Below are positions 3,383 through 37,631 of a stretch of 39,683 bases of DNA, one piece after another; position 1 is the stretch's first letter; each line of letters begins with the position of its first letter. The stretch spans positions 1 through 39,683 of IMG/VR virus record IMGVR_UViG_3300029156_000008; one strand, given 5' to 3'. Made by a program: the position numbers and the translations under genes. The notes under the pieces were generated by a model. The model had not been told where the DNA came from. It was given only the letters and a program-made list of their open reading frames with translations, and searched no databases. The DNA is from a virus. Its lineage: Duplodnaviria > Caudoviricetes.

Positions 3383-3651
3383 TGGGGTTTCGGTTCATGG
3401 TTTCGCTGAGCAACGGCTTTGCATTCGCTCTCGATGCGCTTGCGCCAGTCCGAATACTTCTCGAGGGGAGGAGAGCCTTTGGGGATTGAGGGGCCGTCCC
3501 AGGCAACCTCGATCGCGTCCTCTAGGGCTTTTTCTAGTTCACTGACTCTGCGGCAGAGGGCGAGCATGTATCCGTCCTCGTCCTTGGGCCAAGGCGTCTC
3601 GCCCGAGATCATCCCCTCTGCCCATGTTCGTGTGATCTTCGGTTCGTTCAT
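3379..3651 (-). CDS. Hypothetical phage protein, probable first gene of a leftward operon
   Basis: Preceded by the shared promoter motif; PKITR...LCR similarity to 1252..1788. Confidence 0.7.
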   Translation of the reverse strand: MNEPKITRTWAEGMISGETPWPKDEDGYMLALCRRVSELEKALEDAIEVAWDGPSIPKGSPPLEKYSDWRKRIESECKAVAQRNHEPKPQ

Positions 3652-3697
3652 CCCTCCGAAGCTACCGACCTATCAGAATCCGTGTTGTGGATTCCGG
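3652..3697 (-). promoter_or_regulatory. Leftward promoter/operator, copy 1
   Basis: Plus strand ATCCGTGTTGTGGATTCC at 3678-3695, identical to 6262-6279. CACGGAT starts 33 nt upstream of the ATG; TAGCTT at -13..-8. Confidence 0.65.
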
Positions 3698-3700
3698 GGA

Positions 3701-4174
3701 TTACTGGTCGCTGTAGACCTTCGCTGTTCGCCGTTCCTGCTCGCGCTCTATCTTCTCGAGAATCGCTCCCCTGCGCCTGAGCTCCGCCTCAGCCTCCCGG
3801 AGCCTGACCTGGAGATCCCTGATGTCGGGAATCAGGAGGGTCTCCATCGCCTTCAGGCGTTCGTTCTGGGTCGCATTGAGCGCCGAGACAATTCGGTCGT
3901 GCTCCGCGATCCAGGAGGCGTGTCCCCCGCTCTTGTTCTGGAGGCGTTCGATGTTCTCCCTGAAAGGCTGGGAGCCGAGGGAGACGACCGAGAGGATCAG
4001 GCCAGCGAACATGCCGAGGGTCTTCCAGTCGGTGGACCCGAGCTGGTCCATCTTTCGCTCCAGCCCACGCAGAGCGTCCGTGACGGACTGGAAGGACCGA
4101 TCGACGTTCTTCTCGAAGACTTCGAACTCGTCCCGAGAGATGTAGCTCCGGTCCCTGCGGGGCTGATCTGTCAT
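3701..4174 (-). CDS. Single-pass membrane coiled-coil protein (possibly lysis-related)
   Basis: Coiled coil, hydrophobic WKTLGMFAGLILSVVSLG, coiled coil. Start re-called at 4174 with CATACT at -13..-8. Confidence 0.65.
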   Translation of the reverse strand: MTDQPRRDRSYISRDEFEVFEKNVDRSFQSVTDALRGLERKMDQLGSTDWKTLGMFAGLILSVVSLGSQPFRENIERLQNKSGGHASWIAEHDRIVSALNATQNERLKAMETLLIPDIRDLQVRLREAEAELRRRGAILEKIEREQERRTAKVYSDQ

Positions 4175-4233: not shown

Positions 4234-4503
4234 ATGACACCTCAAGAGCGTCTTGCCTGGGCTTGCCTCACAGACATCAATAACCAGCGCCTCATCGGGC
4301 ATTCGGAGGCCTTTGCCAGGGCGGTCAAGTGCCTCGAGGCTTACGAGGAAGAGGAGGTGTCTAACGCTGAGAACGTGATCTATGTGGCGGGGAAGTCCGC
4401 CACGAAGACCGCTGCCCAGGCAGCCTGCCAGGCAGCCAAGACCGGGCTCCCTGCGGTGGACCTAGCCCTCGACATCGCCATCACAGCCATCATCGCCCTC
4501 TGA
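4234..4503 (+). CDS. Hypothetical protein
   Basis: Helical, Ala-rich ORF with purine-rich upstream; 3' end overlaps the convergent gene. Confidence 0.5.
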   Translation: MTPQERLAWACLTDINNQRLIGHSEAFARAVKCLEAYEEEEVSNAENVIYVAGKSATKTAAQAACQAAKTGLPAVDLALDIAITAIIAL

Positions 4504-4740
4504 GGCGCTCTGTGCTGCGCTCTCCGGGGACTTCGGCTTCTTTGTGGCCTCAGGCTCGATCAGACGCTTGATCGCCCCGTAGAGCCCCCCAGCCATCGCC
4601 TTGAGCGTGACCATGTTGTCGATGGGGATCTCCACGGTGTCCGTCGTCCCGCAGGAGCATTGGCGCTTGCGGAAGCACACTCCCGGCAAGCTGTCTGACT
4701 CCCCGTAGAGGGACAGCTCCTTGCAGGTAGGGCAGATCAT
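4462..4740 (-). CDS. NrdR-N-like zinc-ribbon protein
   Basis: MICPTC...DS...FRKRQCSCGTTDTVE matches the NrdR N-terminal Zn ribbon pattern; no ATP cone. Confidence 0.65.
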   Translation of the reverse strand: MICPTCKELSLYGESDSLPGVCFRKRQCSCGTTDTVEIPIDNMVTLKAMAGGLYGAIKRLIEPEATKKPKSPESAAQSASEGDDGCDGDVEG

Positions 4741-4755
4741 CTAGGATGGGTCTCC

Positions 4756-4863
4756 ATGAAGGTCAGACATCAGACACGCCCGAAGCACAACAAGCCCCGG
4801 CTCAGAGCATCGACCAAGATCAAGAAGCTGGTGAAGCTCCCGAGGCCGAAGGTGGGGAAGTGA
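4756..4863 (+). CDS. 35-aa very basic peptide (not in ORF track)
   Basis: MKVRHQTRPKHNKPRLRASTKIKKLVKLPRPKVGK; TAGGAT at 4742-4747 upstream; ends where the periodic tract begins. Confidence 0.4.
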   Translation: MKVRHQTRPKHNKPRLRASTKIKKLVKLPRPKVGK

Positions 4864-5065
4864 TGGGACGCTGGGAAATGTGCAGATCGGGTGAGGCACG
4901 TCATGCGCCGATGTGACTTGAGCCGTGCCGAGATGGGTTGGCTTGTGTCGAGGCGATGCGGTACGACGTGGGTTGGCTTGATGAGGGGCGGTCTGGAACG
5001 AGATGAGTGGATCGGTTCCGATCTGACTTAGGCAGGTGTGATGTGCTGTGAGTCGAGAAGGCCAG
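4855..5065 (-). repeat. Degenerate 5-nt-period array 2 (candidate guide-like ncRNA)
   Basis: Plus-strand G at 4855, 4860 ... 5065 in 42 of 43 units, with the only miss at 5030; other positions variable. Strand assigned from the adjacent genes. Confidence 0.9.
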
Positions 5066-5498
5066 GACGCTTGTCCTGGTGTGGCTGAAGCAGCGCCTTG
5101 CGCTCCTTCTTGATTGCTAGAATCTGACGGGCTTGCGCCATGCTCAGGTCCGAATGCTCTTGCTTGCGGCCTTCCGAGAGCTGCTTCGTGTCCACGGACA
5201 TCATCCGCCGATGGGCTCGGAGCAAACGTCGGATGCCGCGCTCGAAGGACGCATCGTTGTAGATCGAAGCCTCCTCATCGGTGAGGACGTGGATGGCCCC
5301 TTGGCGGACGCACACCGTCACAGCCTCTCCTCGCGCAGCTAGCTCGACTTCGATCTGCTGCGCGAGGGCCAGGGCCTTCAGTGCGAAGTTCTTGTCGAGT
5401 ACGTCCATCTCGATCGCTTCGGAGACATCCCCCGGAGGGATGATGGACCCCTTCTTCAGCGAATCGAAGTCAAGCGGATACGGGCTGGAGTGGGGCAT
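5028..5498 (-). CDS. 156-aa accessory protein located between the two pentamer arrays
   Basis: Clean ORF with alpha/beta N-half and basic helical C-half; ATG immediately follows array 1. Confidence 0.8.
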   Translation of the reverse strand: MPHSSPYPLDFDSLKKGSIIPPGDVSEAIEMDVLDKNFALKALALAQQIEVELAARGEAVTVCVRQGAIHVLTDEEASIYNDASFERGIRRLLRAHRRMMSVDTKQLSEGRKQEHSDLSMAQARQILAIKKERKALLQPHQDKRPGLLDSQHITPA

Positions 5499-5640
5499 GA
5501 AGTGATGAGTGGAGTAGAGCGGAGACGAAGAGTGCGAATCCGTGATGTTCGGATACGGGTGGGTGGGGGATGGTGTGTGTTGCTAGGGGTCGTGTAGCGT
5601 GGATGCGAACTGTGTAGGCGTGTGTTGCTTCGAGGCGAAT
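5499..5640 (-). repeat. Degenerate 5-nt-period array 1 (candidate guide-like ncRNA)
   Basis: Plus-strand G at 5502, 5507 ... 5637 in 27 of 28 units (miss at 5537); fills the intergenic gap downstream of the RAMP-like gene. Confidence 0.9.
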
Positions 5641-5650
5641 GACAACCTAC

Positions 5651-6235
5651 TCACTTCACGGCGAAAGACTCGACCATGAAGCGACCGTGACGCGGGCGTA
5701 GCGTCCCTAGCCCGCAGTTCTCCCCAGCGTACTCAAGCATCTGCTGGAGAATGTCTGGATCGACGGCCTCCGACTGGAACTTCAGCTCGAAGCTCAGGGA
5801 CCAGTTTGGGAACATCGGCATACAACGAAGGATCTTCGACCCCCGAAGCCCCATCATCCCACTCCACCGGAAACGAGGATCCGCCTGAAGCTCCTTCAGG
5901 TCATCCGGGCCGTCATGCTTGATGACGTGCAGTCCGTCGATAAAGACAGACGCCTTGAAGGTCTTCCCTAGGCGGCGGGACTTCGCGGCATCAACAAGGC
6001 AGGCCTCGATGTTGAGCCCGGGGATGCAGGGCTTCATGTCTTCCGTCAGGTAGAGGCCGCCCTGCCACTCAAGCTCCGCTAGGTCCATCAGGTCTTGATC
6101 GACCTTCTTGCGTCGGGATGTGATCTTCTTGATCTCCTTCACGAGCGGGTCCAGGGGGTTGCTGCATCGGATGTTGTGGGAGACCAGGGGTGAGACGCCC
6201 GTGATCTTCGCTCTGGCTGTTTTGTAGGTGGTCAT
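5651..6235 (-). CDS. Stand-alone RAMP/Cas7-like RNA-binding protein (Vipr-like), 194 aa
   Basis: N-terminal strand KITGVSPLVSH, PCIPGLNIEACLVDAA (RAMP IPGxxxK-type motif), MPMFPNWSLSFEL, and C-terminal Gly-rich loop GLGTLRPRHGRF. Start re-called at ATG 6235. Confidence 0.8.
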   Translation of the reverse strand: MTTYKTARAKITGVSPLVSHNIRCSNPLDPLVKEIKKITSRRKKVDQDLMDLAELEWQGGLYLTEDMKPCIPGLNIEACLVDAAKSRRLGKTFKASVFIDGLHVIKHDGPDDLKELQADPRFRWSGMMGLRGSKILRCMPMFPNWSLSFELKFQSEAVDPDILQQMLEYAGENCGLGTLRPRHGRFMVESFAVK

Positions 6236-6322
6236 CCACCCGTTGATATCAGCCGCCTGAGATCCGTGTTGTGGATTCCCGGAAATCTTGATCGCTGCCA
6301 TCTACAGCTACAAGCTGTAGGG
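6236..6322. promoter_or_regulatory. Divergent promoter region between RAMP-like gene and terL
   Basis: Contains copy 2 of ATCCGTGTTGTGGATTCC (6262-6279), TATCAA at -13..-8 of the RAMP ATG, and hairpin CTACAGC-TACAA-GCTGTAG (6302-6320) before the terL ATG. Confidence 0.6.
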
Positions 6323-7927
6323 ATGAGCGAAGAGGAGCCGAAAGAATACGTCTACCAGCCCAGAGGGGCGGTGTGGGACTTGTACTGGGAGAACCGGGAT
6401 CCGGAGGTCCTGCTGGAGGGACCTGCTGGAACTGGAAAGAGCCGTGGCGCTCTCGAGTACGCCTACATGTGCGCGACGAACTATCCGGGTTGCAGGATCT
6501 TGTTCTTGCGCAACGTCAAGTCAACGCTTGCAGAGTCGATCCTTCCCGAATGGGAAAGCTCTGTTCTGTGGCCTGGCCATCCTGTCTTGGCTGGGTCAGA
6601 GCAGATGATGGAGAACCGCCGCTCCTACACCTTCCCACACGCAAAGGTGATCGGAGACGGGACGTTCCACCCAGACGACAAAGGCAAGGTCTACGAAGGT
6701 GAGACCCACATCGTCCTTGGAGGCCTGGATAAGAACCAGGTCGATAAAACTTATTCGTCGCAATATGATCTCATCATCGTCTTCGAGGCTTTCGAGATCA
6801 CCGAGGACGCCTGGCAGAAGCTGTTCCGAGCCAACCGAAACTGGCATATGCCCTGGCAGCAGATGGTGGCGGACACCAACCCGAACATCGCCAACCACTG
6901 GCTGCACCTCCGAGCGGACAAGCCATATGAGGTCCCGCCTGAGCTCAAGGATCAGCTCGATGTGAGACCCGGTCAGACGATGATGACCAGGCTCGTCTCG
7001 AAGCATAAGGACAACCCCAAGTTCTGGGACCACAAGGAGAAGAAGTGGACCCATGCGGGGGCGAACTACATCGCCAAGCTCCACCGTCTCTCAGGGGCTC
7101 GTAAGGACAACCTCCTTCACGGCAAGTGGACCTCAGTTGAGGGTCTGATCTTCGAGGACTGGAACCGTGGCACGCACGTCATCCATGCGGAGCTGAAGAC
7201 GGAGCATGGTGTTCACAAGCTCTACGTCGAGGACTGGGACGATCCGATCATTCTCACGTGGTTCATCGCTTCGGTGGACTGGGGCTACCACCCGAACCCT
7301 GGGACGGTGCAGGTGTGGGGGATGGACCAGGAGGACCGTCGCTTCCTGGTGGCCGAGATCTACCAGACGAAGAGGCAGTTGGACTGGTGGGCTGACAAGA
7401 TCGCTGATCTCCATGCCCGCTTCGACTTCAAGGCTGTCGTGTGTGATGGCTCGGAGCCCCACAACATCGACGCCCTGAACATGCGGCTGGGGACGTTCCG
7501 GGGTCGAGAGGTCCCGAGCCTGGCTCAGAAGCAGTCCAGGAAGCACAGTTCCCGCACCAGCGGCTGGCAGGCAGGTATCGACCAGATCCGGTTTGGGCTG
7601 AAGTCTCCGGAGGATGGTGTGCCGAGGCTGTTCGTTCTCTCGGATGCTCTGAAGGAGGGTGCGGATCCCGAGCTCCGTGAGTCGGGCAGACCTACGAGCT
7701 TCGCCCAGGAGATGGATCTGTACCGCTACATGCCCAACGAGGACGGGAAGCCGAGGAAGGAGCAGGAGGACCCGAGATGTGATGCTCACGGGATCGACGC
7801 TGCCCGGTATGCCTGGACGTGGGGGTGGAGGAAGGATCTATCACCGAAAGAGCAGAATCAGGCTTACGCTCCCGGCACGTTCGGGGCAGTCTTGGGCCAT
7901 GGAAAGAAACGTCGGGGTGGCAGATAG
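6323..7927 (+). CDS. terL: Terminase large subunit
   Basis: Walker A GPAGTGKS, Walker B-like LIIVFEA, motif C DTNP, nuclease SVDWGY and DAHGIDAARYA; start re-called at ATG 6323. Confidence 0.93.
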   Translation: MSEEEPKEYVYQPRGAVWDLYWENRDPEVLLEGPAGTGKSRGALEYAYMCATNYPGCRILFLRNVKSTLAESILPEWESSVLWPGHPVLAGSEQMMENRRSYTFPHAKVIGDGTFHPDDKGKVYEGETHIVLGGLDKNQVDKTYSSQYDLIIVFEAFEITEDAWQKLFRANRNWHMPWQQMVADTNPNIANHWLHLRADKPYEVPPELKDQLDVRPGQTMMTRLVSKHKDNPKFWDHKEKKWTHAGANYIAKLHRLSGARKDNLLHGKWTSVEGLIFEDWNRGTHVIHAELKTEHGVHKLYVEDWDDPIILTWFIASVDWGYHPNPGTVQVWGMDQEDRRFLVAEIYQTKRQLDWWADKIADLHARFDFKAVVCDGSEPHNIDALNMRLGTFRGREVPSLAQKQSRKHSSRTSGWQAGIDQIRFGLKSPEDGVPRLFVLSDALKEGADPELRESGRPTSFAQEMDLYRYMPNEDGKPRKEQEDPRCDAHGIDAARYAWTWGWRKDLSPKEQNQAYAPGTFGAVLGHGKKRRGGR

Positions 7928-24700: not shown

Positions 24701-25743
24701 GAGCTGTACCTTCGAGTCTTCCTGGATGGGCGATTGGAGCCCAGTCCGCTGCGAACACGGGGGAGGGCTTGCAGAAGCAAGCTCTCCGTGAGCAGGCGTT
24801 GGCCCAGCGTGGCCAGGAGGAGCAGCGCCGCCAGCAGCAGTATCAGTTTGCTGTCCAGCAGGCCCAGCAGAAGTTCCAGGCTGAGGAAGCGGAGCGCCAA
24901 GCCCAGCTCGGCCAGGCTCAGGATGCTCTAGGCCAGCAGCGTGACCAGCTCTTCGCAGAGATGCAGGGTGGTCCTGCGACGGTGCAGCAGGACGAGAAGC
25001 TCCGTCAGCTCGAAGGGATCGCCAAGAACCTGACCCCGGAGAACGCGGAGCAGCTCATCGGTGAGTTCGAGAAGATGGAGCTTAGGGACAAGACGACTCA
25101 GGCTTTCCAGTCTGTTGGGCAGGAGGTGATGAGTCAGGTCGAGGGTGGTGCGATCGAGGATCCCAAGACCCAGCAGGAGCTTCAGGCTCTCCAGCAGCAG
25201 GCTGATCAGTTTGCTCAGATGACTGGGGCTGGGGCTTTCGATAGGACCCCCCAGCAGGCAGCCCGGATGATCGAGGGGGTGATGGAGAAGAAGGACCAGA
25301 TCCTCAACGAGCATGTGGATCGCAAGAGCAAGCAGATGGACATCGAGAAGTCTGTTCAGACCTTCGACGCTCGCCTGGCTCAGGTCGCTCCGGGCAGTCC
25401 CAAGTTCCAGCGACTTTCAAGGATCCGGGAAGAGGTGGTCCTGGGCAGGATGACTCCGAAGGAGGCTGGGAAAATGCTGGTAGCGTCTGAGTTCGACCTG
25501 ACGGACAAGGACATGGAGGAGGCGAAGGAGATGGCCTTCAGGCAAGCTCTCGAGGAAGGCGGCTTCCTGGGTCCGATCCAGGCGGCAGCGAAGCAGGCGA
25601 TGGGGTCAGCTCCGCAGGGTCCGGACACCTCGGGCCTCCAGCAGGTCTTGGCGAGCGGTGATCGTGACGGATTTATCCGTATGTCCGAGGAGATGGGTCT
25701 GAGTGTCGAGGAGATCCGGGAGCTGATCAGTGGTGCAAGGTGA
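24697..25743 (+). CDS. Internal virion/DNA ejection protein (medium)
   Basis: Gln-rich coiled coil; second of three. Confidence 0.7.
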   Translation: MRAVPSSLPGWAIGAQSAANTGEGLQKQALREQALAQRGQEEQRRQQQYQFAVQQAQQKFQAEEAERQAQLGQAQDALGQQRDQLFAEMQGGPATVQQDEKLRQLEGIAKNLTPENAEQLIGEFEKMELRDKTTQAFQSVGQEVMSQVEGGAIEDPKTQQELQALQQQADQFAQMTGAGAFDRTPQQAARMIEGVMEKKDQILNEHVDRKSKQMDIEKSVQTFDARLAQVAPGSPKFQRLSRIREEVVLGRMTPKEAGKMLVASEFDLTDKDMEEAKEMAFRQALEEGGFLGPIQAAAKQAMGSAPQGPDTSGLQQVLASGDRDGFIRMSEEMGLSVEEIRELISGAR

Positions 25744-28700
25744 CTATGGAGCCCTGTTTGACGAGCTGAGGGGGAAGCCGAAGGTTGGCAACGACTATGG
25801 AGCCCTGTTTGACGAGCTGAGGGGGAAGCCGAAGGTTGGCAACGACTACGGGGCTTTGTTCGATGAGCTGGCCGGGAAGGCCCAGCCTCAGCAATTCGCT
25901 GAGGGCCCTTATGAAGAGGGTTTCAACGTCGAGTTCGCCCCCCAGGCAGACCAGTACGGCCTCGGCTTCGATCAGGCGACGGAGCTCGGACGCGCCCAGG
26001 CGGGCCAGGAGAGGGCAGACCTGGTCAATCAGGCCACAGGCGCGGCCCTCACAGCCCTCCGTCCTGCCGGGCTGATGAACAGGGGCCTCGCACTCGGCAC
26101 AGGATTGGCTCTAGGAGGGTTTGAGACCGCTACGGGGGCTGAACGCGGGTTCCTGACAGATGAGCGTCTGGAGAAGTACAGGGCGTCTCAGGGGCCTGCT
26201 CCGAGAAACAAGCTGGAGCAGACAATCGAGACGATCGGAGCCCAGCTCCCGAAGATGGCCCTCGGCACAGTCTCCTTACCTGCAACGGGCGTCCTGGGGA
26301 TGCTGGAGCTGGGCCAAGCGAACTATCTCGACACGCTTGAGGCCACGGGAGACAAGGATCAGGCCGAGAAGGTCTTCTGGGCCTCGTCTCCCCTGGGTCT
26401 CTCGGAGATGCTCCTTCCCGGTCTCTCGAGGCTCCCTGCCATGAAGCCCATCCTGGGTCGGCTGGGGCAGATCATGGCGAGGGCTCAGTCCAGCGGGAAG
26501 CTGGGTCGCGCCGGGCTCGGAGCCTTGACGGAGGGGCTCCAGGAGGGTGGGGAGACCTTCGCCTCCAACGTCATCGCGGATCACATGACCACCGAGGACC
26601 GGGACTGGCTCCAGGGGGTGGTGGAGAACACGGAGATGGGCGGCTATGTCGGAGGGGTCCTGAATCTGATCTTCCCGGCCCTGACGAAGCGGGTAAAGGG
26701 CGGGACCCAGCCTCCGGGCCCGTTAGGTACGGAGACCGATGCCCCGCCCCCGTCCAGCCCCACCGTGGGGTCGGACATCCAGTCCGGACAGGCTACCACG
26801 GAGCTGGAAGCCTCACTGGAGAACACCGCCATCCAGCGTGAGCGGAAACTAAAAGGATCTGAGGACGCTTATAATTCCACTTTTGAAAAGACGGAGGACC
26901 CCGTCTACGAAGCTGCCGTAGAGCGGGAGATGGCTAAGGGCATCGGCTTCAAGGCTGCTGACAAGATCGCCAGGGAGGAGTCCTCCGAGGCCTTCAGGCA
27001 GGCGGACATCGAGCGTGCCCGTAAGGAGGGAGCTCTGTTCCCCGAGGAGCTGACATCCATCCCGGAGATCCAGGCTCCGAAGGAGAAGGGTGGTGGAGCC
27101 AAGGCCATCCTCCCCGAGACTCCCCAGACCGCCCCGGTCTTCGATGATCCTGAGTTCACGGCCATCTACGAGACCGAGCTCGCGAAAGGTGATGGGCACA
27201 AGGCCGCCCTCGACCGTGCGCTTGCTCAGGCGGACGAAACGCTCGTTCCGAAGAGGGTCCGCGAAGACCTCCTGAAGCGAGGCTCTCTGTATCCGGAAAT
27301 CGAGGCTCAGGACACGATTGCGGATCAGGCAGAGAACCCGGTCAAGGCTCCGGACAAGCTCACCAACACCTTCGAGGTGCTGGACGAGGACGGGAACCCG
27401 ACAGGGGAGACGCGAACCGAGCGGGTGCTGGCTGATTCCCCGATCGCTCGGGTGCAACGAGCCGCACCCATCGTCGATCCCAAGGCCCCCTTCGCCGCTT
27501 ACCGAGTGAGCAAGGTCGGCAAGAAGAAGTCCATGTCGGCCTTCCTGGACTCCACGATCACCCCCGAGGATGTGGGTGCGGAGTCGGTCCAGGCCTTCCC
27601 CCCGCCTCTCAAGACGCTCCTGGGTCACTTCAAGAACCCCAAGGAAGCGAAGCTCCCGCCCAAGACCAAGGTCCCTTCGGTCAAGTCGAAGCATCCCACG
27701 ATGGAACTCCTGGATGGGTGGCTGGGGGATCGCCAGCTAGCTGACCAGGCCTACGAGATCGACGCCTCGAACAAGGAGAAGACGCTCTCGAACTTGCTCT
27801 CATCGGACGGCTTCAAGGGCAAGAAGGCGGTGCAGCAGGAGATCGCCGCCGCGATGCACCTCTACATCGACACCAAGGACAACTTCGATGCGGAGTACGC
27901 GAAGTTTGGCGAGAAGCTCACCCCAAGGCAGCAGCGCATCGTCAAGCGGATGCAGTCACTCTCCCCGGAGCTGAAGGCTTTCGCGGACCAGATTGCAGAG
28001 GAGAACAAGGCCTTCGGTGAGTTCTCGAAGGACAAGGGTGTGATCGAGAACGTGCGGGAGAACTACACCGCCCGCCTTTGGAAGCCCGACGCGAAGGGTC
28101 CGAAGGCTGCGAAGCACGGATCCTTCACCCAGAGCACGGGTCGTGCCCGCAGGCGAACCCTCTCCTCGATCCTGGAGGGGTGGGCTGAAGGGAAGGAGCT
28201 TGCAGTCGAGAGCGTGATCAATGCCCAGCTTCTCGCTCGCCAGCAAGTGGCTCAGGTCATCCACGACCGCAACCTGATTGAGGTGGGCAAGAAGTCTGGC
28301 ATGTTCACGGACAAGCCAGAGGAGGGCTATGCCCAGGTGGAGCACCCGAACTTCCAGCACTGGAAGTATTCAGGCAAGGGAGAGAATCTCGATACGTTCG
28401 GTAAGGGTGTGTTCGGAACGGAGGACGGAGCGATCCTGGAGCGTGTCCCGCTCTATGCCCCGGAGAAGCTGGCTGAGAGGCTCAACAACATCCTCGGCAA
28501 GAGTCGCCTCAAGGCCGAGACGATCACGAAGTACAACGCTCTGGCGAAGCAGACGTTGCTCTTCACGTCCCTGTTCCACCACCAGGCCTTCATCCGCTCC
28601 TTCACGGGCGGCACGCCGGGGTTCTTCTCGAACAAGACTTACAACATCCCCAAGCACTACAAGCAGGGGATGAAGGCGATCGAGGAGTTCACACCTGAGC

Positions 28701-29779
28701 TCCAAGGTCTCGTCCACGCCGGTCTGACCCTCGGCAAGATCCAGGACTTCGATGAGATGGCTGTCCAGCAGGACAACATCATCAACGACACGATCAACAA
28801 GGTCCCGATGGCGAAGGGCATCAAGGATAAGATCGTCGCGTTCCGTGATCAGCAGACCGACTTCCTCTTCAAGAAGATGGGCCCTGCCCTGAAGGCCCAA
28901 GCTGCGCTCCTCGAGTACCAGCACCTCGTCGAGAAGAACAAGGGAGCCTTGGCCGAAGGGAAGATCACCAGTTCAGATATCGCAGAGACGGTGGCGAGCA
29001 TCGTCAATGATGACTTTGGTGGGTTGAACCTCCAGAAGATGGGGCGGGACCCGACGAGGCAGCATATCTTCCGCCTTTTGGCTCTCGCTCCCGACTGGAC
29101 GGAGTCGAACGTCCGCTCGATGGTCAAGGCCTTCAAGGGAGGGTTCGAGGGCAAGGTCTACCGGAACATGTGGGCCCGTGTATTCGCGCGCTTCGGTGCC
29201 GCCACGGTGCTGTTCAACATGATGATGGCTAACTGGCCCGGAAGCGACGACGAAGAGCGCATGTCTCCGACAGAGCGGTTTGTCAGTCGCTACAAGAAGG
29301 CCTGGGATACCGGAAAGCTACGCTGGCTCGCGGTCGACATCAGCCCGATCTATCGAGCCACGGGCGGTGAAGACGGCACTCGGAAGTACTTCTCGGTGCT
29401 TGGCCACTTCAAGGACCCGATCAAGTTCGCCTTCAACCCGATCCGCTCTGCCAAGCACAAGTCCAGCCCCCTAGCCTCAATGGTCGCTGAAGCCGCTTTT
29501 GGTACCGACTGGGCGGGTCGCAGGTTCACGACCTTCGCGGAGTTACTGGGGATGGATGAGAAGGGTGACAAGAAGGGCGAGACGGTCACTTGGGACTTTG
29601 GGTCCGAACCGTTGAAGCCCAGTCAGTTCCCTTCGTACGTTATCTCCCAGGCCAAAGGGGTCATGCCGATCCAAGCACAGAATGCCGCAGCTCTCCTTGC
29701 TGGAGAGATGGATTGGTTCAGCGCCATCACCACAGGCTTGGGCCTGATGGTGAGCACCGAGAAAGAGAAAGACCAATGA
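25730..29779 (+). CDS. Large internal virion/DNA ejection protein
   Basis: 1349 aa helical protein; EGLQEGGE motif in a Gly/Ala-rich N-region; LALAPDWT helical C-domain. Confidence 0.75.
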   Translation: MVQGDYGALFDELRGKPKVGNDYGALFDELRGKPKVGNDYGALFDELAGKAQPQQFAEGPYEEGFNVEFAPQADQYGLGFDQATELGRAQAGQERADLVNQATGAALTALRPAGLMNRGLALGTGLALGGFETATGAERGFLTDERLEKYRASQGPAPRNKLEQTIETIGAQLPKMALGTVSLPATGVLGMLELGQANYLDTLEATGDKDQAEKVFWASSPLGLSEMLLPGLSRLPAMKPILGRLGQIMARAQSSGKLGRAGLGALTEGLQEGGETFASNVIADHMTTEDRDWLQGVVENTEMGGYVGGVLNLIFPALTKRVKGGTQPPGPLGTETDAPPPSSPTVGSDIQSGQATTELEASLENTAIQRERKLKGSEDAYNSTFEKTEDPVYEAAVEREMAKGIGFKAADKIAREESSEAFRQADIERARKEGALFPEELTSIPEIQAPKEKGGGAKAILPETPQTAPVFDDPEFTAIYETELAKGDGHKAALDRALAQADETLVPKRVREDLLKRGSLYPEIEAQDTIADQAENPVKAPDKLTNTFEVLDEDGNPTGETRTERVLADSPIARVQRAAPIVDPKAPFAAYRVSKVGKKKSMSAFLDSTITPEDVGAESVQAFPPPLKTLLGHFKNPKEAKLPPKTKVPSVKSKHPTMELLDGWLGDRQLADQAYEIDASNKEKTLSNLLSSDGFKGKKAVQQEIAAAMHLYIDTKDNFDAEYAKFGEKLTPRQQRIVKRMQSLSPELKAFADQIAEENKAFGEFSKDKGVIENVRENYTARLWKPDAKGPKAAKHGSFTQSTGRARRRTLSSILEGWAEGKELAVESVINAQLLARQQVAQVIHDRNLIEVGKKSGMFTDKPEEGYAQVEHPNFQHWKYSGKGENLDTFGKGVFGTEDGAILERVPLYAPEKLAERLNNILGKSRLKAETITKYNALAKQTLLFTSLFHHQAFIRSFTGGTPGFFSNKTYNIPKHYKQGMKAIEEFTPELQGLVHAGLTLGKIQDFDEMAVQQDNIINDTINKVPMAKGIKDKIVAFRDQQTDFLFKKMGPALKAQAALLEYQHLVEKNKGALAEGKITSSDIAETVASIVNDDFGGLNLQKMGRDPTRQHIFRLLALAPDWTESNVRSMVKAFKGGFEGKVYRNMWARVFARFGAATVLFNMMMANWPGSDDEERMSPTERFVSRYKKAWDTGKLRWLAVDISPIYRATGGEDGTRKYFSVLGHFKDPIKFAFNPIRSAKHKSSPLASMVAEAAFGTDWAGRRFTTFAELLGMDEKGDKKGETVTWDFGSEPLKPSQFPSYVISQAKGVMPIQAQNAAALLAGEMDWFSAITTGLGLMVSTEKEKDQ
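25742..25879 (+). repeat. 51-nt in-frame tandem repeat (two identical copies plus a diverged partial copy)
   Basis: Units start at 25742, 25793 and 25844 and encode DYGALFDELRGKPKVGN. Confidence 0.95.
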
Positions 29780-35886: not shown

Positions 35887-35922
35887 TTGACTATGGTTGC
35901 CTTCCCCTGTAGCCTGCCGAGC
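35887..35922 (+). promoter_or_regulatory. Sigma70-type promoter, leaderless, for the HNH gene
   Basis: TTGACT (35887-35892), 17 nt spacer, TAGCCT (35910-35915), 7 nt, then ATG 35923. Confidence 0.7.
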
Positions 35923-36396
35923 ATGGCTAGACCTAGAAATGAGTGGCGTGACGCCGAGGAGTACCTCCTTGAGCGTTGTGAAGAAGACGAGAAAACCGGC
36001 TGCTGGGAGTGGATCGCTGGTCGATCCGGCTGTGGCTATGGAGCTGTGATCTTCCCAGGAGAGAATCGAGCCCACCGGGCGGCTTACAAGGCCTGGAGGG
36101 GGCCTATCCCGAAGGGGATGCAGGTTCGGCACGCCTGCGATAACAAGATCTGCATCAATCCAGATCATCTGCTCGTGGGGTCGTGTGCCGACAACGTGAG
36201 GGATGCCCAGGACCGTGGGCTAAACCCATCCGGAGAGAAGCATGGGATGGCGAAGCTGAACGCTCATGCCGTCTCCATGATCCGAAAGCACTATTCCGAG
36301 GGTCGATTCAACCAACGTGAGCTTGGGGAGATCTTTGGGGTCTCTCAGCTCAATGTGAGCCGAATCGTCCGCAACAAGACTTGGACCGATGCCTGA
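35923..36396 (+). CDS. HNH homing endonuclease with C-terminal HTH
   Basis: GCWEW, GYG, AHRAAY, VRHACDNKICINPDHL, DN, GEKHGMAKL and QRELGEIFGVSQ. Confidence 0.9.
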   Translation: MARPRNEWRDAEEYLLERCEEDEKTGCWEWIAGRSGCGYGAVIFPGENRAHRAAYKAWRGPIPKGMQVRHACDNKICINPDHLLVGSCADNVRDAQDRGLNPSGEKHGMAKLNAHAVSMIRKHYSEGRFNQRELGEIFGVSQLNVSRIVRNKTWTDA

Positions 36397-37631
36397 TGCT
36401 GATCGCCCTGCTGCTCGCCGCTCTCCTGGCCAAGCCTGACGTCCTGATCATCGTTCTGGATGATGTGGGATGGACGGACTTCCAGGCTGTTGATACCCCC
36501 AACCTCGATGAGCTCGCTGACGAGGGAGTCCTCTTCCACCGAGCTTACGCTCACCCCTGGTGTCGTCCGACGCGGGCAGCCTTGCTCTTCTCTGTCTGGG
36601 ATGGGGCGAGCTACGGGAACCTCTGCAAGCTCCCGACGGCCTTCGCTCTCCCTGAGATCGACAGCCTCCCTTCGATTCTCTCGGGCTATTCCACGGGCCT
36701 CTTTGGGAAGTGGCACCTGGGGAACAACAACAACATCGCGTTCACGGCCTGGGAGACGCCCCAGCTCCATGGGTTCGACACTTGGAGGGCGGGGACGCCG
36801 GACAACATCTTCTCCCAGGCCTGCAACTCGCTGGACTACACGGACTGGAAGCGGGTCGATGACGGTGTCGTGACTCCCGGCGTCTCGACCTACAACACGA
36901 TCGCTGTCCGTGATGCGTGGTGTGATTGGTGGACGAACACTCCTGGGGAGAAGATGGCTGTGGTTGCCTACCAGGCGGCTCACGAGCCCTTCCACATCCC
37001 CCCCTCCAGCATCCTCCCTTCGTCCTACACCCCTCCCGCTCAGGTCGGTCCTCGAGAGCAGTACGAGGCGATGGTCCAGAGTTTGGACTTCGTCTTGGGT
37101 GAGATGTTGGAGGTTGTGGACAACGACACCTGGGTCTTTGTTTTTGGGGATAACGGCACGCCCTACAACGCCCTGGCCTCACCTTCCCAGGACCCCTTGA
37201 AGGTGAAGCACACGACCTTTGAACAGGGAGTCCACGTCCCCTTGGTAGTTCGAGGTCCTGGTGCAATCCCTGGGGACTACTTCGGGCCGGTGAACGTGGC
37301 AGACATCATGCCCACGGTCTCGGGCCTGACGATGTCCCTGATGCCTGCCGACAGGGACGGGATCTCCTTCTATGGGGCTCTGATCGGGATGGACTCCCCC
37401 AGGGACTGGACCTACGTCCACACGAAGCGAGGCAATCCCAAGGGTGGGCTTCCTGGGTCTGACGAGGCGGTGATCGAGGAGCGTTGGAAGCTCCGTGAGT
37501 TCGATGGCACTCAGACGCTCTACGATCTCCTGTACGACCCTTTGGAGGAGACTCCCCTGGATCCCGATGACCCGGTCTATGCCGTCCATGTGACGCGGCT
37601 CAGAGCGCTCCTGGCGCAGGCTAGGTCATGA
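36396..37631 (+). CDS. Formylglycine-dependent (S1) sulfatase with signal peptide
   Basis: PDVLIIVLDDVG, TPNLD, CRPTR (CxPxR), GKWHLG, HEPFH, GDNG, K-x-T-x-FEQGVHVP; start at ATG 36396 via TGATG. Confidence 0.92.
   Translation: MLIALLLAALLAKPDVLIIVLDDVGWTDFQAVDTPNLDELADEGVLFHRAYAHPWCRPTRAALLFSVWDGASYGNLCKLPTAFALPEIDSLPSILSGYSTGLFGKWHLGNNNNIAFTAWETPQLHGFDTWRAGTPDNIFSQACNSLDYTDWKRVDDGVVTPGVSTYNTIAVRDAWCDWWTNTPGEKMAVVAYQAAHEPFHIPPSSILPSSYTPPAQVGPREQYEAMVQSLDFVLGEMLEVVDNDTWVFVFGDNGTPYNALASPSQDPLKVKHTTFEQGVHVPLVVRGPGAIPGDYFGPVNVADIMPTVSGLTMSLMPADRDGISFYGALIGMDSPRDWTYVHTKRGNPKGGLPGSDEAVIEERWKLREFDGTQTLYDLLYDPLEETPLDPDDPVYAVHVTRLRALLAQARS

Follow-up and report, generated by a model that had tools for sequence, protein, structure and literature searches.

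The closest described relatives of the locus analysed here are the VIPR systems, whose arrays carry a GGY or related consensus together with a variable NN pair that is read with a one-nucleotide skip (10.64898/2026.04.26.720920). That discovery preprint also lists alternative vrRNA classes (NNNGG, YNNNG and NNNNG), and the passages covered of the COMPASS preprint (10.64898/2026.10.21.760802) describe 21 clusters with non-canonical motifs, for example GAC/NN, CAC/NN, WGT/NN and TGH/NN. For the type II VIPR of SUSP1 and of a P. fulva prophage we relied on 10.64898/2026.04.26.720920 and on the available parts of 10.64898/2026.04.26.720927 and 10.64898/2026.10.15.759431. The locus in question lies in a 39,683-nucleotide (nt) stretch of viral DNA (IMG/VR record IMGVR_UViG_3300029156_000008, positions 1 to 39,683; "the window" below), where a 194-amino acid (AA) Vipr homologue is followed by two tracts of pentamers in which essentially only the first base is constant. 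Judging from the sequence, we think it probable (roughly 0.7) that this is a phage VIPR with one fixed pyrimidine per five bases, which would silence the terminase gene of a sister phage and the excisionase genes of rival elements. It is a VIPR variant and not a new class, because the protein is a Vipr and its 156-AA partner is a Vap1 homologue.

On the minus strand the order is vipr (5651-6235), a first pentamer tract, the 156-AA open reading frame (ORF; 5028-5498) and a second tract, and an earlier note made from the sequence alone had this order and these coordinates right. A sliding scan of the whole window for a period of five (140-nt segments) agrees with that note, which saw no comparable tract in the other intergenic regions it checked; only these two exceed z = 3 (z = 6.5 and 5.5) and the best segment outside them reaches z = 2.5. 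With local C content allowed for, the C at the start of 26/27 pentamers in tract 1 (5637-5503) has a binomial p of 2e-8 and that at the start of 32/32 pentamers in tract 2 (5025-4866) a p of 1e-12; C thus opens 58 of the 59 pentamers in the two non-coding cores combined. The C phase extends into both ends of the 156-AA ORF, and in the full runs (5637-5473 and 5065-4841) all 78 units start with a pyrimidine, 74 with C and four with T. The information content of the five positions is 1.71, 0.07, 0.00, 0.35 and 0.15 bits, and positions 2-3 share the base composition of 1,672 canonical NN pairs, so the unit is best written Y-NN-M-H. G is depleted at positions 4-5 (12/118), and the arrays as a whole are C-rich (42-46% C). 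None of the 57 core scaffold triplets is GGY, the commonest being CTC (10), CAC (9), ATC (8), CCC (6) and ACC (5). YNNGG runs are present on the vipr strand in 48 of the 49 loci that we used for comparison (five from GenBank phages and 44 from IMG/VR), and there are none on either strand here. The arrays are long, running without a break for 27 and 33 units, overlap both ends of vap and have no evident tail; in a search for one no fold beat shuffled sequences (z from -1.2 to 0.9) and there was no Rfam match, nor was a sister locus available to align.

The 194-AA protein matches the SUSP1 Vipr (PDB 36pp_D) with an E value of 3.7e-29 and 34% identity, and a search of cluster representatives yields 2,579 relatives for it at E <= 0.001. 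Its AlphaFold model (pLDDT 97.7) finds Csm3/Cas7 proteins as top structural matches (best E 5e-7), which agrees with the RAMP/Cas7-like fold proposed in the earlier note, and the likeness to VIPR which that note pointed out proves to be direct homology, with a Vap1-family accessory gene beside it. Using the SUSP1 positions named in the available part of 10.64898/2026.04.26.720927, we find that the DNA-clamp residues K33, R39, K82, G87 and K88, the pyrimidine-pocket residues C173 and R179, and H17 are conserved. The G-reading residues R138, D177 and W178 of SUSP1 correspond to M139, T178 and L179 here, so that among H17, D177, R138 and W178 only the histidine is retained. The R138 position is an arginine in 154/161 homologues and in 49/49 comparison loci; all three G-readers are changed only in this protein and in one other of the 161, P0013 (M/A/L at these positions), which is 58% identical to it and its sister, with support 100, in a quick tree whose deep forks are unsettled. 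The 156-AA ORF was the single target searched with a profile of 35 vipr-downstream genes that include SUSP1 Vap1 (E 7e-9), and it matches the Vap proteins of loci L011 and L007 with E values near 1e-18, that of L011 being the closest, although pairwise BLAST against SUSP1 Vap1 gave no match. By these profile matches it is a Vap1-family accessory protein, predicted from its family to bind DNA; its single-sequence fold is poor (pLDDT 55). Both ORFs are intact and have gene-like codon usage.

The features of the locus, including the guides discussed below, are as follows:

6262-6297, minus strand: 36-nt element with a putative function
5651-6235, minus strand: vipr gene, 194-AA RAMP protein by homology and predicted fold
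5503-5637, minus strand: putative guide array 1, 27 pentamers C-NN-M-H, with the C phase continuing to 5473 inside the start of vap
5583-5632, minus strand: putative guide 1a, units 1-10, whose NN pairs spell, as the first two bases of successive codons, the terminase motif DKTYSAQYDL found in close relatives
5503-5572, minus strand: putative guide 1b, units 13-26, whose NN pairs match HTH_17/excisionase genes (IPHVRIGRSVRY.I) in L262, L051 and L050
5028-5498, minus strand: vap gene, 156 AA, Vap1-family by profile match
4861-5025, minus strand: putative guide array 2, 33 pentamers, C phase 5065-4841; units 8-31 without a decoded target
4861-4905, minus strand: end of putative guide 2, units 32-40, opposite-strand reading MTGIHRDTI, IS1-like transposases (moderate support)
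6743-6772, plus strand: site within the phage's own gene for the terminase large subunit that guide 1a nearly matches, 17/20 read bases
6266-7927 (likely start 6326), plus strand: own terL ORF, starting 91 nt from vipr
4756-4863, plus strand: 35-AA ORF, rich in K/R and gene-like in codon usage, that runs up to the edge of array 2

When the published one-nucleotide-skip rule is applied to pentamer positions 2-3, the NN pairs fit targets with the skipped base falling on the wobble position; these matches, here and below, are in silico. NN pairs taken from positions 3-4 (a YCR/NN register) or 4-5, and skips of 0 or 2, gave no signal above shuffles. For guide 1a the best match within the window is the phage's own terminase gene (17/20, in frame, skip at the wobble base), and the three mismatches fall in two adjacent codons. 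Among 119 terminase homologues, P0166 fits it in 10/10 units at the codon-family level (DKTYSAQYDL). When the units were shuffled 1,000 times and scored against the same 119 proteins, 10 was never attained and 9 only once; the 11 remaining combinations of array, register and orientation scored only 6-7. Where guide 1a encodes alanine, all seven close relatives have alanine and the phage itself has serine. A metagenome scan returned only terminase relatives at about 40%, the best of which match guide 1a at 12-15/20.

Guide 1b was searched as a 20-base pattern, which has two matches in 596 Gb of GTDB genomes, both in Planctomycetota metagenome-assembled genomes, and one in IMG/VR. About one chance match is expected by count, yet each of the three falls within an HTH_17 gene, in its reading frame and with the wobble base as the one skipped; the reading itself resembles what we take to be an excisionase motif, and the L262 gene scores above the cut-off of TIGR01764. 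Genes next to these excisionase-like genes encode a primase-polymerase (L051) and an AAA_24 protein (L262). Over 14 units the guide matches the three genes at 27/28, 26/28 and 25/28 bases; the four units that lie beyond the search pattern match at 7/8, 6/8 and 5/8 (18/24 together), and the four units before it match none of eight bases in L262. The last units of array 2 (32-40) give, in the opposite-strand reading, MTGIHRDTI, presumably a motif of IS1-like transposases. Three of 30 fetched loci carry a motif of this type, with matches of 17/18, 16/18 and 15/18, and the observed 18/20 was reached anywhere by 6 of 400 shuffles, so that there is moderate support for the end of array 2 targeting IS1-like transposases. 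Two further readings of array 2 were rejected: the phage's own terminase (WNRGTHV), which 72 of 400 shuffles fit as well and relatives do not improve, and a terminase motif (AE.N.GG), for which the best score was 7/10. The gapped code for non-contiguous targets in rivals that the earlier note envisaged is supported by the terminase and HTH_17/excisionase matches, with the correction that the variable bases are positions 2-3 of a C-started pentamer and are read with a one-base skip. The decoded targets suggest a Planctomycetota host. The phage also has a sulfatase gene at 36381-37631 on the plus strand (Pfam E 2e-27), which we assume would fit a host of the Planctomycetota type.

If the SUSP1 structures are a guide, the arrays would be transcribed together with vipr from the upstream element, and the transcript would be cut into guides of about 9-14 units along which Vipr polymerises, one subunit per pentamer. 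The C would be held in the unchanged Y3 pocket with the two unspecific scaffold bases flipped out, and the NN pairs would form a gapped R-loop triplex on double-stranded DNA, so that binding, helped by Vap, would block transcription without cutting. A blocked excisionase gene would leave a resident prophage or satellite integrated, and a blocked kin terminase gene would keep a co-infecting relative from packaging and so exclude it, while the mismatches in two codons likely protect the terminase gene of the phage itself. A bolder form of this explanation, to which we give a little less than even odds, holds that the locus represents an active lineage that has lost guanine recognition altogether, in which Vipr reads a single pyrimidine per pentamer and the terminase of kin is the target, with two of the phage's own codons recoded so that its own gene escapes. 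Nearly every C-phased RNA, the stretches overlapping vap included, could then act as a guide without a tail. No other of these systems would have so minimal an RNA scaffold, and the locus would directly exemplify co-evolution between a protein and its RNA code.

The code is symmetric, so the targets do not reveal which strand is transcribed. Transcription of the vipr strand across array 1 is required for vap expression, and the guide RNA is probably the C-anchored (vipr) strand. Array runs are on the sense strand in 163 of 175 cases, in 46 of the 49 loci. The purine fraction of the NN pairs is 0.60 on the vipr strand and 0.40 on the other, compared with 0.56 +/- 0.07 across the 33 loci that, after de-duplication, have 25 or more units. 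All four exceptions to the anchor are T, as at the canonical Y3, but just one of the four is both internal and clean. We consider it unlikely, though deserving of serious attention, that the guides come instead from the plus strand with the targets unchanged. The scaffold would then be G-D-K/NN, near the published NNNNG class, with a fixed G in 74/78 pentamers at G1 and not at G2; the first G would be read by H20 and only the second would have been lost, along with R138M/W178L. What favours this, and speaks against the vipr strand, is that L011, which has the closest Vap and a matching layout, contains only antisense YNNGG arrays, and that array 2 is where the gene-like plus-strand ORF 4756-4863 stops (codon usage 0.38 bits/codon, with p = 0.0002 in comparison with shuffles; no Pfam match). 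In addition G2 would be 70% purine on the plus strand, D177T is compatible with G1 (L023), and a purine at Y3 exists in L201. On the other hand Y3 would be 58% purine, none of the 33 loci has an NN purine fraction below the plus-strand value of 0.40 (a likelihood ratio of about 14), solely antisense arrays occur in only 1/49 loci, a minus-strand vap mRNA has to pass through array 1, and the 36-nt element upstream of vipr has no copy directed toward the plus strand. In L011 (3068-3347) the order is vipr, array, vap, and one of the two antisense YNNGG arrays overlaps the vap start; here the 35-AA ORF is divergent from a 92-AA Cys-rich ORF (4462-4740), with 15 nt between their starts.

Other observations weigh against the preferred explanation, a VIPR anchored by one pyrimidine and aimed at kin terminase and rival excisionase genes, and some of them favour particular rivals. 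The available part of 10.64898/2026.04.26.720927 reports that R138A and D177A abolish SUSP1 silencing, and with the degenerate scaffold and the much of array 2 that has no decoded target (the best fit of its 24 units 8-31 in 259 loci, 2.0 Mb on both strands, is 16/20, within the null) this would suit a decaying VIPR whose arrays are drifting relics. We regard such decay as improbable, since canonical arrays have a less strict anchor than this one (58/59), G at positions 4-5 is depleted and not merely eroded, guides still match at up to 27/28, the residue changes are common to the sister protein, and both ORFs are intact. The residue arguments themselves are not tight, because D177T co-occurs with YNNGG in L023 and L201 has GGA/NN arrays with a similar Y3 pocket; moreover a distant Vipr clade without R138 still keeps the last G (CNNCG). 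As to the targets, all families were chosen after the decoded peptides had been read, which tempers the p-values. The match to the phage's own terminase gene is weak by itself (18/150 DNA shuffles and 13/400 protein-level shuffles are as good), and the terminase pattern has no match in IMG/VR, so that a kin target is not seen at the DNA level. Thirty generic HTH_17 loci are not enriched as a set (14.27 vs 14.22), and a 16-unit pattern with up to three mismatches has no match in 401 Planctomycetota genomes. Self-avoidance is suggested, not shown, because private changes like the Ala-to-Ser one occur at 16 of 217 otherwise conserved columns. The own-gene match (85%) in fact exceeds the 80% threshold used for natural targets in 10.64898/2026.04.26.720920, and terL starts only 91 nt from vipr, so the terminase guide might be autoregulatory: instead of excluding relatives it would damp the divergent terL of the phage itself, for instance so that packaging is delayed. 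This seems to us about as improbable as decay or slightly more so, as guide 1a fits the consensus of relatives (Ala) better than self, the mismatches are in two adjacent central units, and published guides score lower on self than on non-self (available part of 10.64898/2026.10.15.759431). Finally, an origin of the tracts as chance or simple-sequence DNA unconnected with the protein, to which their C-richness might point, can be dismissed almost entirely; it is refuted by their uniqueness in the window, the composition-corrected p values and the target matches.

No CRISPR-like spaced repeat was found in the window and no cas family was matched by the ORFs scanned (27 for each of the Pfam, PHROGs and PADLOC libraries, in overlapping but not identical sets), which bears out the earlier note on both counts; within the window, which is part of a longer phage, this is a minimal vipr and vap locus without cas genes or a CRISPR array. 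The window gave no tRNA or Rfam match. The carrier is viral, as the record states, and window proteins match the terminase, major head protein and adaptor of tailed phages; the same protein is present on a 49.6-kb contig, and the window occurs in two aquatic DNA runs, possibly its source, whose contigs are free of array variants. The earlier note had placed a promoter before vipr. There is no sigma-70 consensus upstream of the gene, and what stands there is the 36-nt element (with an 18-nt exact core), which is duplicated at 3678-3713, with precisely 27 nt between each copy and the minus-strand ATG downstream of it, that of vipr and that of a gene starting at 3651. The duplicated element is likely a phage promoter or operator common to vipr and the small-gene cluster from 3651. 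A low-depth 657-nt contig (run X1, record 3) shares 30 nt with the 5' region of vipr (window 6177-6206); its continuation is absent from the window, and the visible 30 letters are C-phased in 5/6 pentamers. Possible origins of this contig are chimeric joining to an array in another part of the phage and a second VIPR locus. Elsewhere in the window, a 1,349-AA protein (25730-29779, plus strand) weakly matches a virion RNA polymerase family (E 7e-5) and opens with three 51-nt in-frame repeats (25742-25894), and a plus-strand ORF at 35887-36396 is homing-endonuclease-like (PADLOC HEase, E 5e-7).

Scaffolds are diverse among other Vipr loci. In the CNNCG clade (L078, L107/L108, L152/L153, L156 and L166) the G-loop is GR[FY]R and a thumb aromatic replaces R138, and the arrays are long and on the sense strand, with at most 11 pattern matches per locus. 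L084 and L125 have arrays that read GCA/NN in the vipr direction and CNNTG in the opposite one, and in L201 (3001-3612) the GGA/NN arrays are on the strand of their own Vipr, with a purine at the Y3 position. A G-free CNNAA pentamer tract is present in L198 (301-370, minus strand), a 20.7-kb viral record in which no vipr was found. Searches of IMG/VR with the protein itself, its G-loop motif, P0013 and the terminase clade found no sister-clade locus, only the distant L201. The 401 Planctomycetota genomes contain ten distant Vipr-like matches, for none of which a C-only scaffold type is established. A generic C-phase scan of 2/64 of the IMG/VR parts gave 123 loci, among which the Vipr-bearing ones are CNNCG, CNNTG/GCA or antisense canonical, and four G-poor candidates have no vipr in their records.

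It appears that the gapped VIPR code of two bases read and one skipped can persist where the GG scaffold has been lost and residues essential in SUSP1 have gone; geometry, and not the GGY motif, looks invariant, because the code outlasts both. The M/T/L protein with its C-only arrays and the R/D/W protein with GGY form a natural pair for studying how a RAMP protein chooses its RNA. This matters for the path proposed to lead from Vipr to CRISPR Cas7, a protein that binds RNA without base specificity. Guide searches based on YNNGG would miss such loci, orthogonal guides immune to GGY decoys may exist, and the decoded targets suggest kin exclusion through terminase.

We found no VIPR paper beyond the preprints cited here, and no single-base anchor with decoded targets in the literature searched. 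The VIPR preprint texts, as far as covered (Figs S17/S10 and the bioRxiv supplements aside), contain no pyrimidine-only scaffold, no link between variant residues and motif and no terminase target, and the covered passages of 10.64898/2026.10.21.760802 hold no residue link or target decoding. The earlier note's suggestion of an undescribed type is only partly right, in that non-canonical motifs including the G-free CAC/NN are already present in the covered part of 10.64898/2026.10.21.760802, and the tract read as G-anchored on the opposite strand could come under the NNNNG class of the discovery paper. Like the named COMPASS clusters, among which G-free, C-ending scaffolds exist, this locus makes use of CAC (its second commonest triplet, 9/57); unlike the examples named in that part of the text, where three bases are fixed or one is relaxed, two of its three scaffold bases are relaxed. 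Relaxed scaffold positions are also a property of NNNGG, YNNNG and NNNNG, but as written these all keep the last G, whereas here the form is YNNNN on the vipr strand or retains the first G only on the other. With the Cas7/Csm3 proteins of class 1 CRISPR-Cas systems the Vipr shares its RRM-thumb-G-loop fold, but the locus has no repeat-spacer array, cas1/2/5/6 or nuclease, and its pairing would be gapped and not contiguous. The likeness to the type II VIPR of SUSP1 is the closest, and includes the Vipr homologue, the Vap1-family partner, the pentamer arrays, NN pairs read with a one-nucleotide skip on the wobble base, the DNA clamps K33/R39/K82/K88, and predicted targets in rival mobile elements, an excision function among them. 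The differences from it are that none of the 57 triplets is GGY and R138/D177/W178 are replaced, that the guides follow back to back in unbroken runs of 27 and 33 units overlapping the ends of vap, and that one guide points at a kin terminase. By its genes and arrays the locus is thus a VIPR in the broad sense, lying outside the canonical SUSP1 type as defined by GGY and the G-readers.

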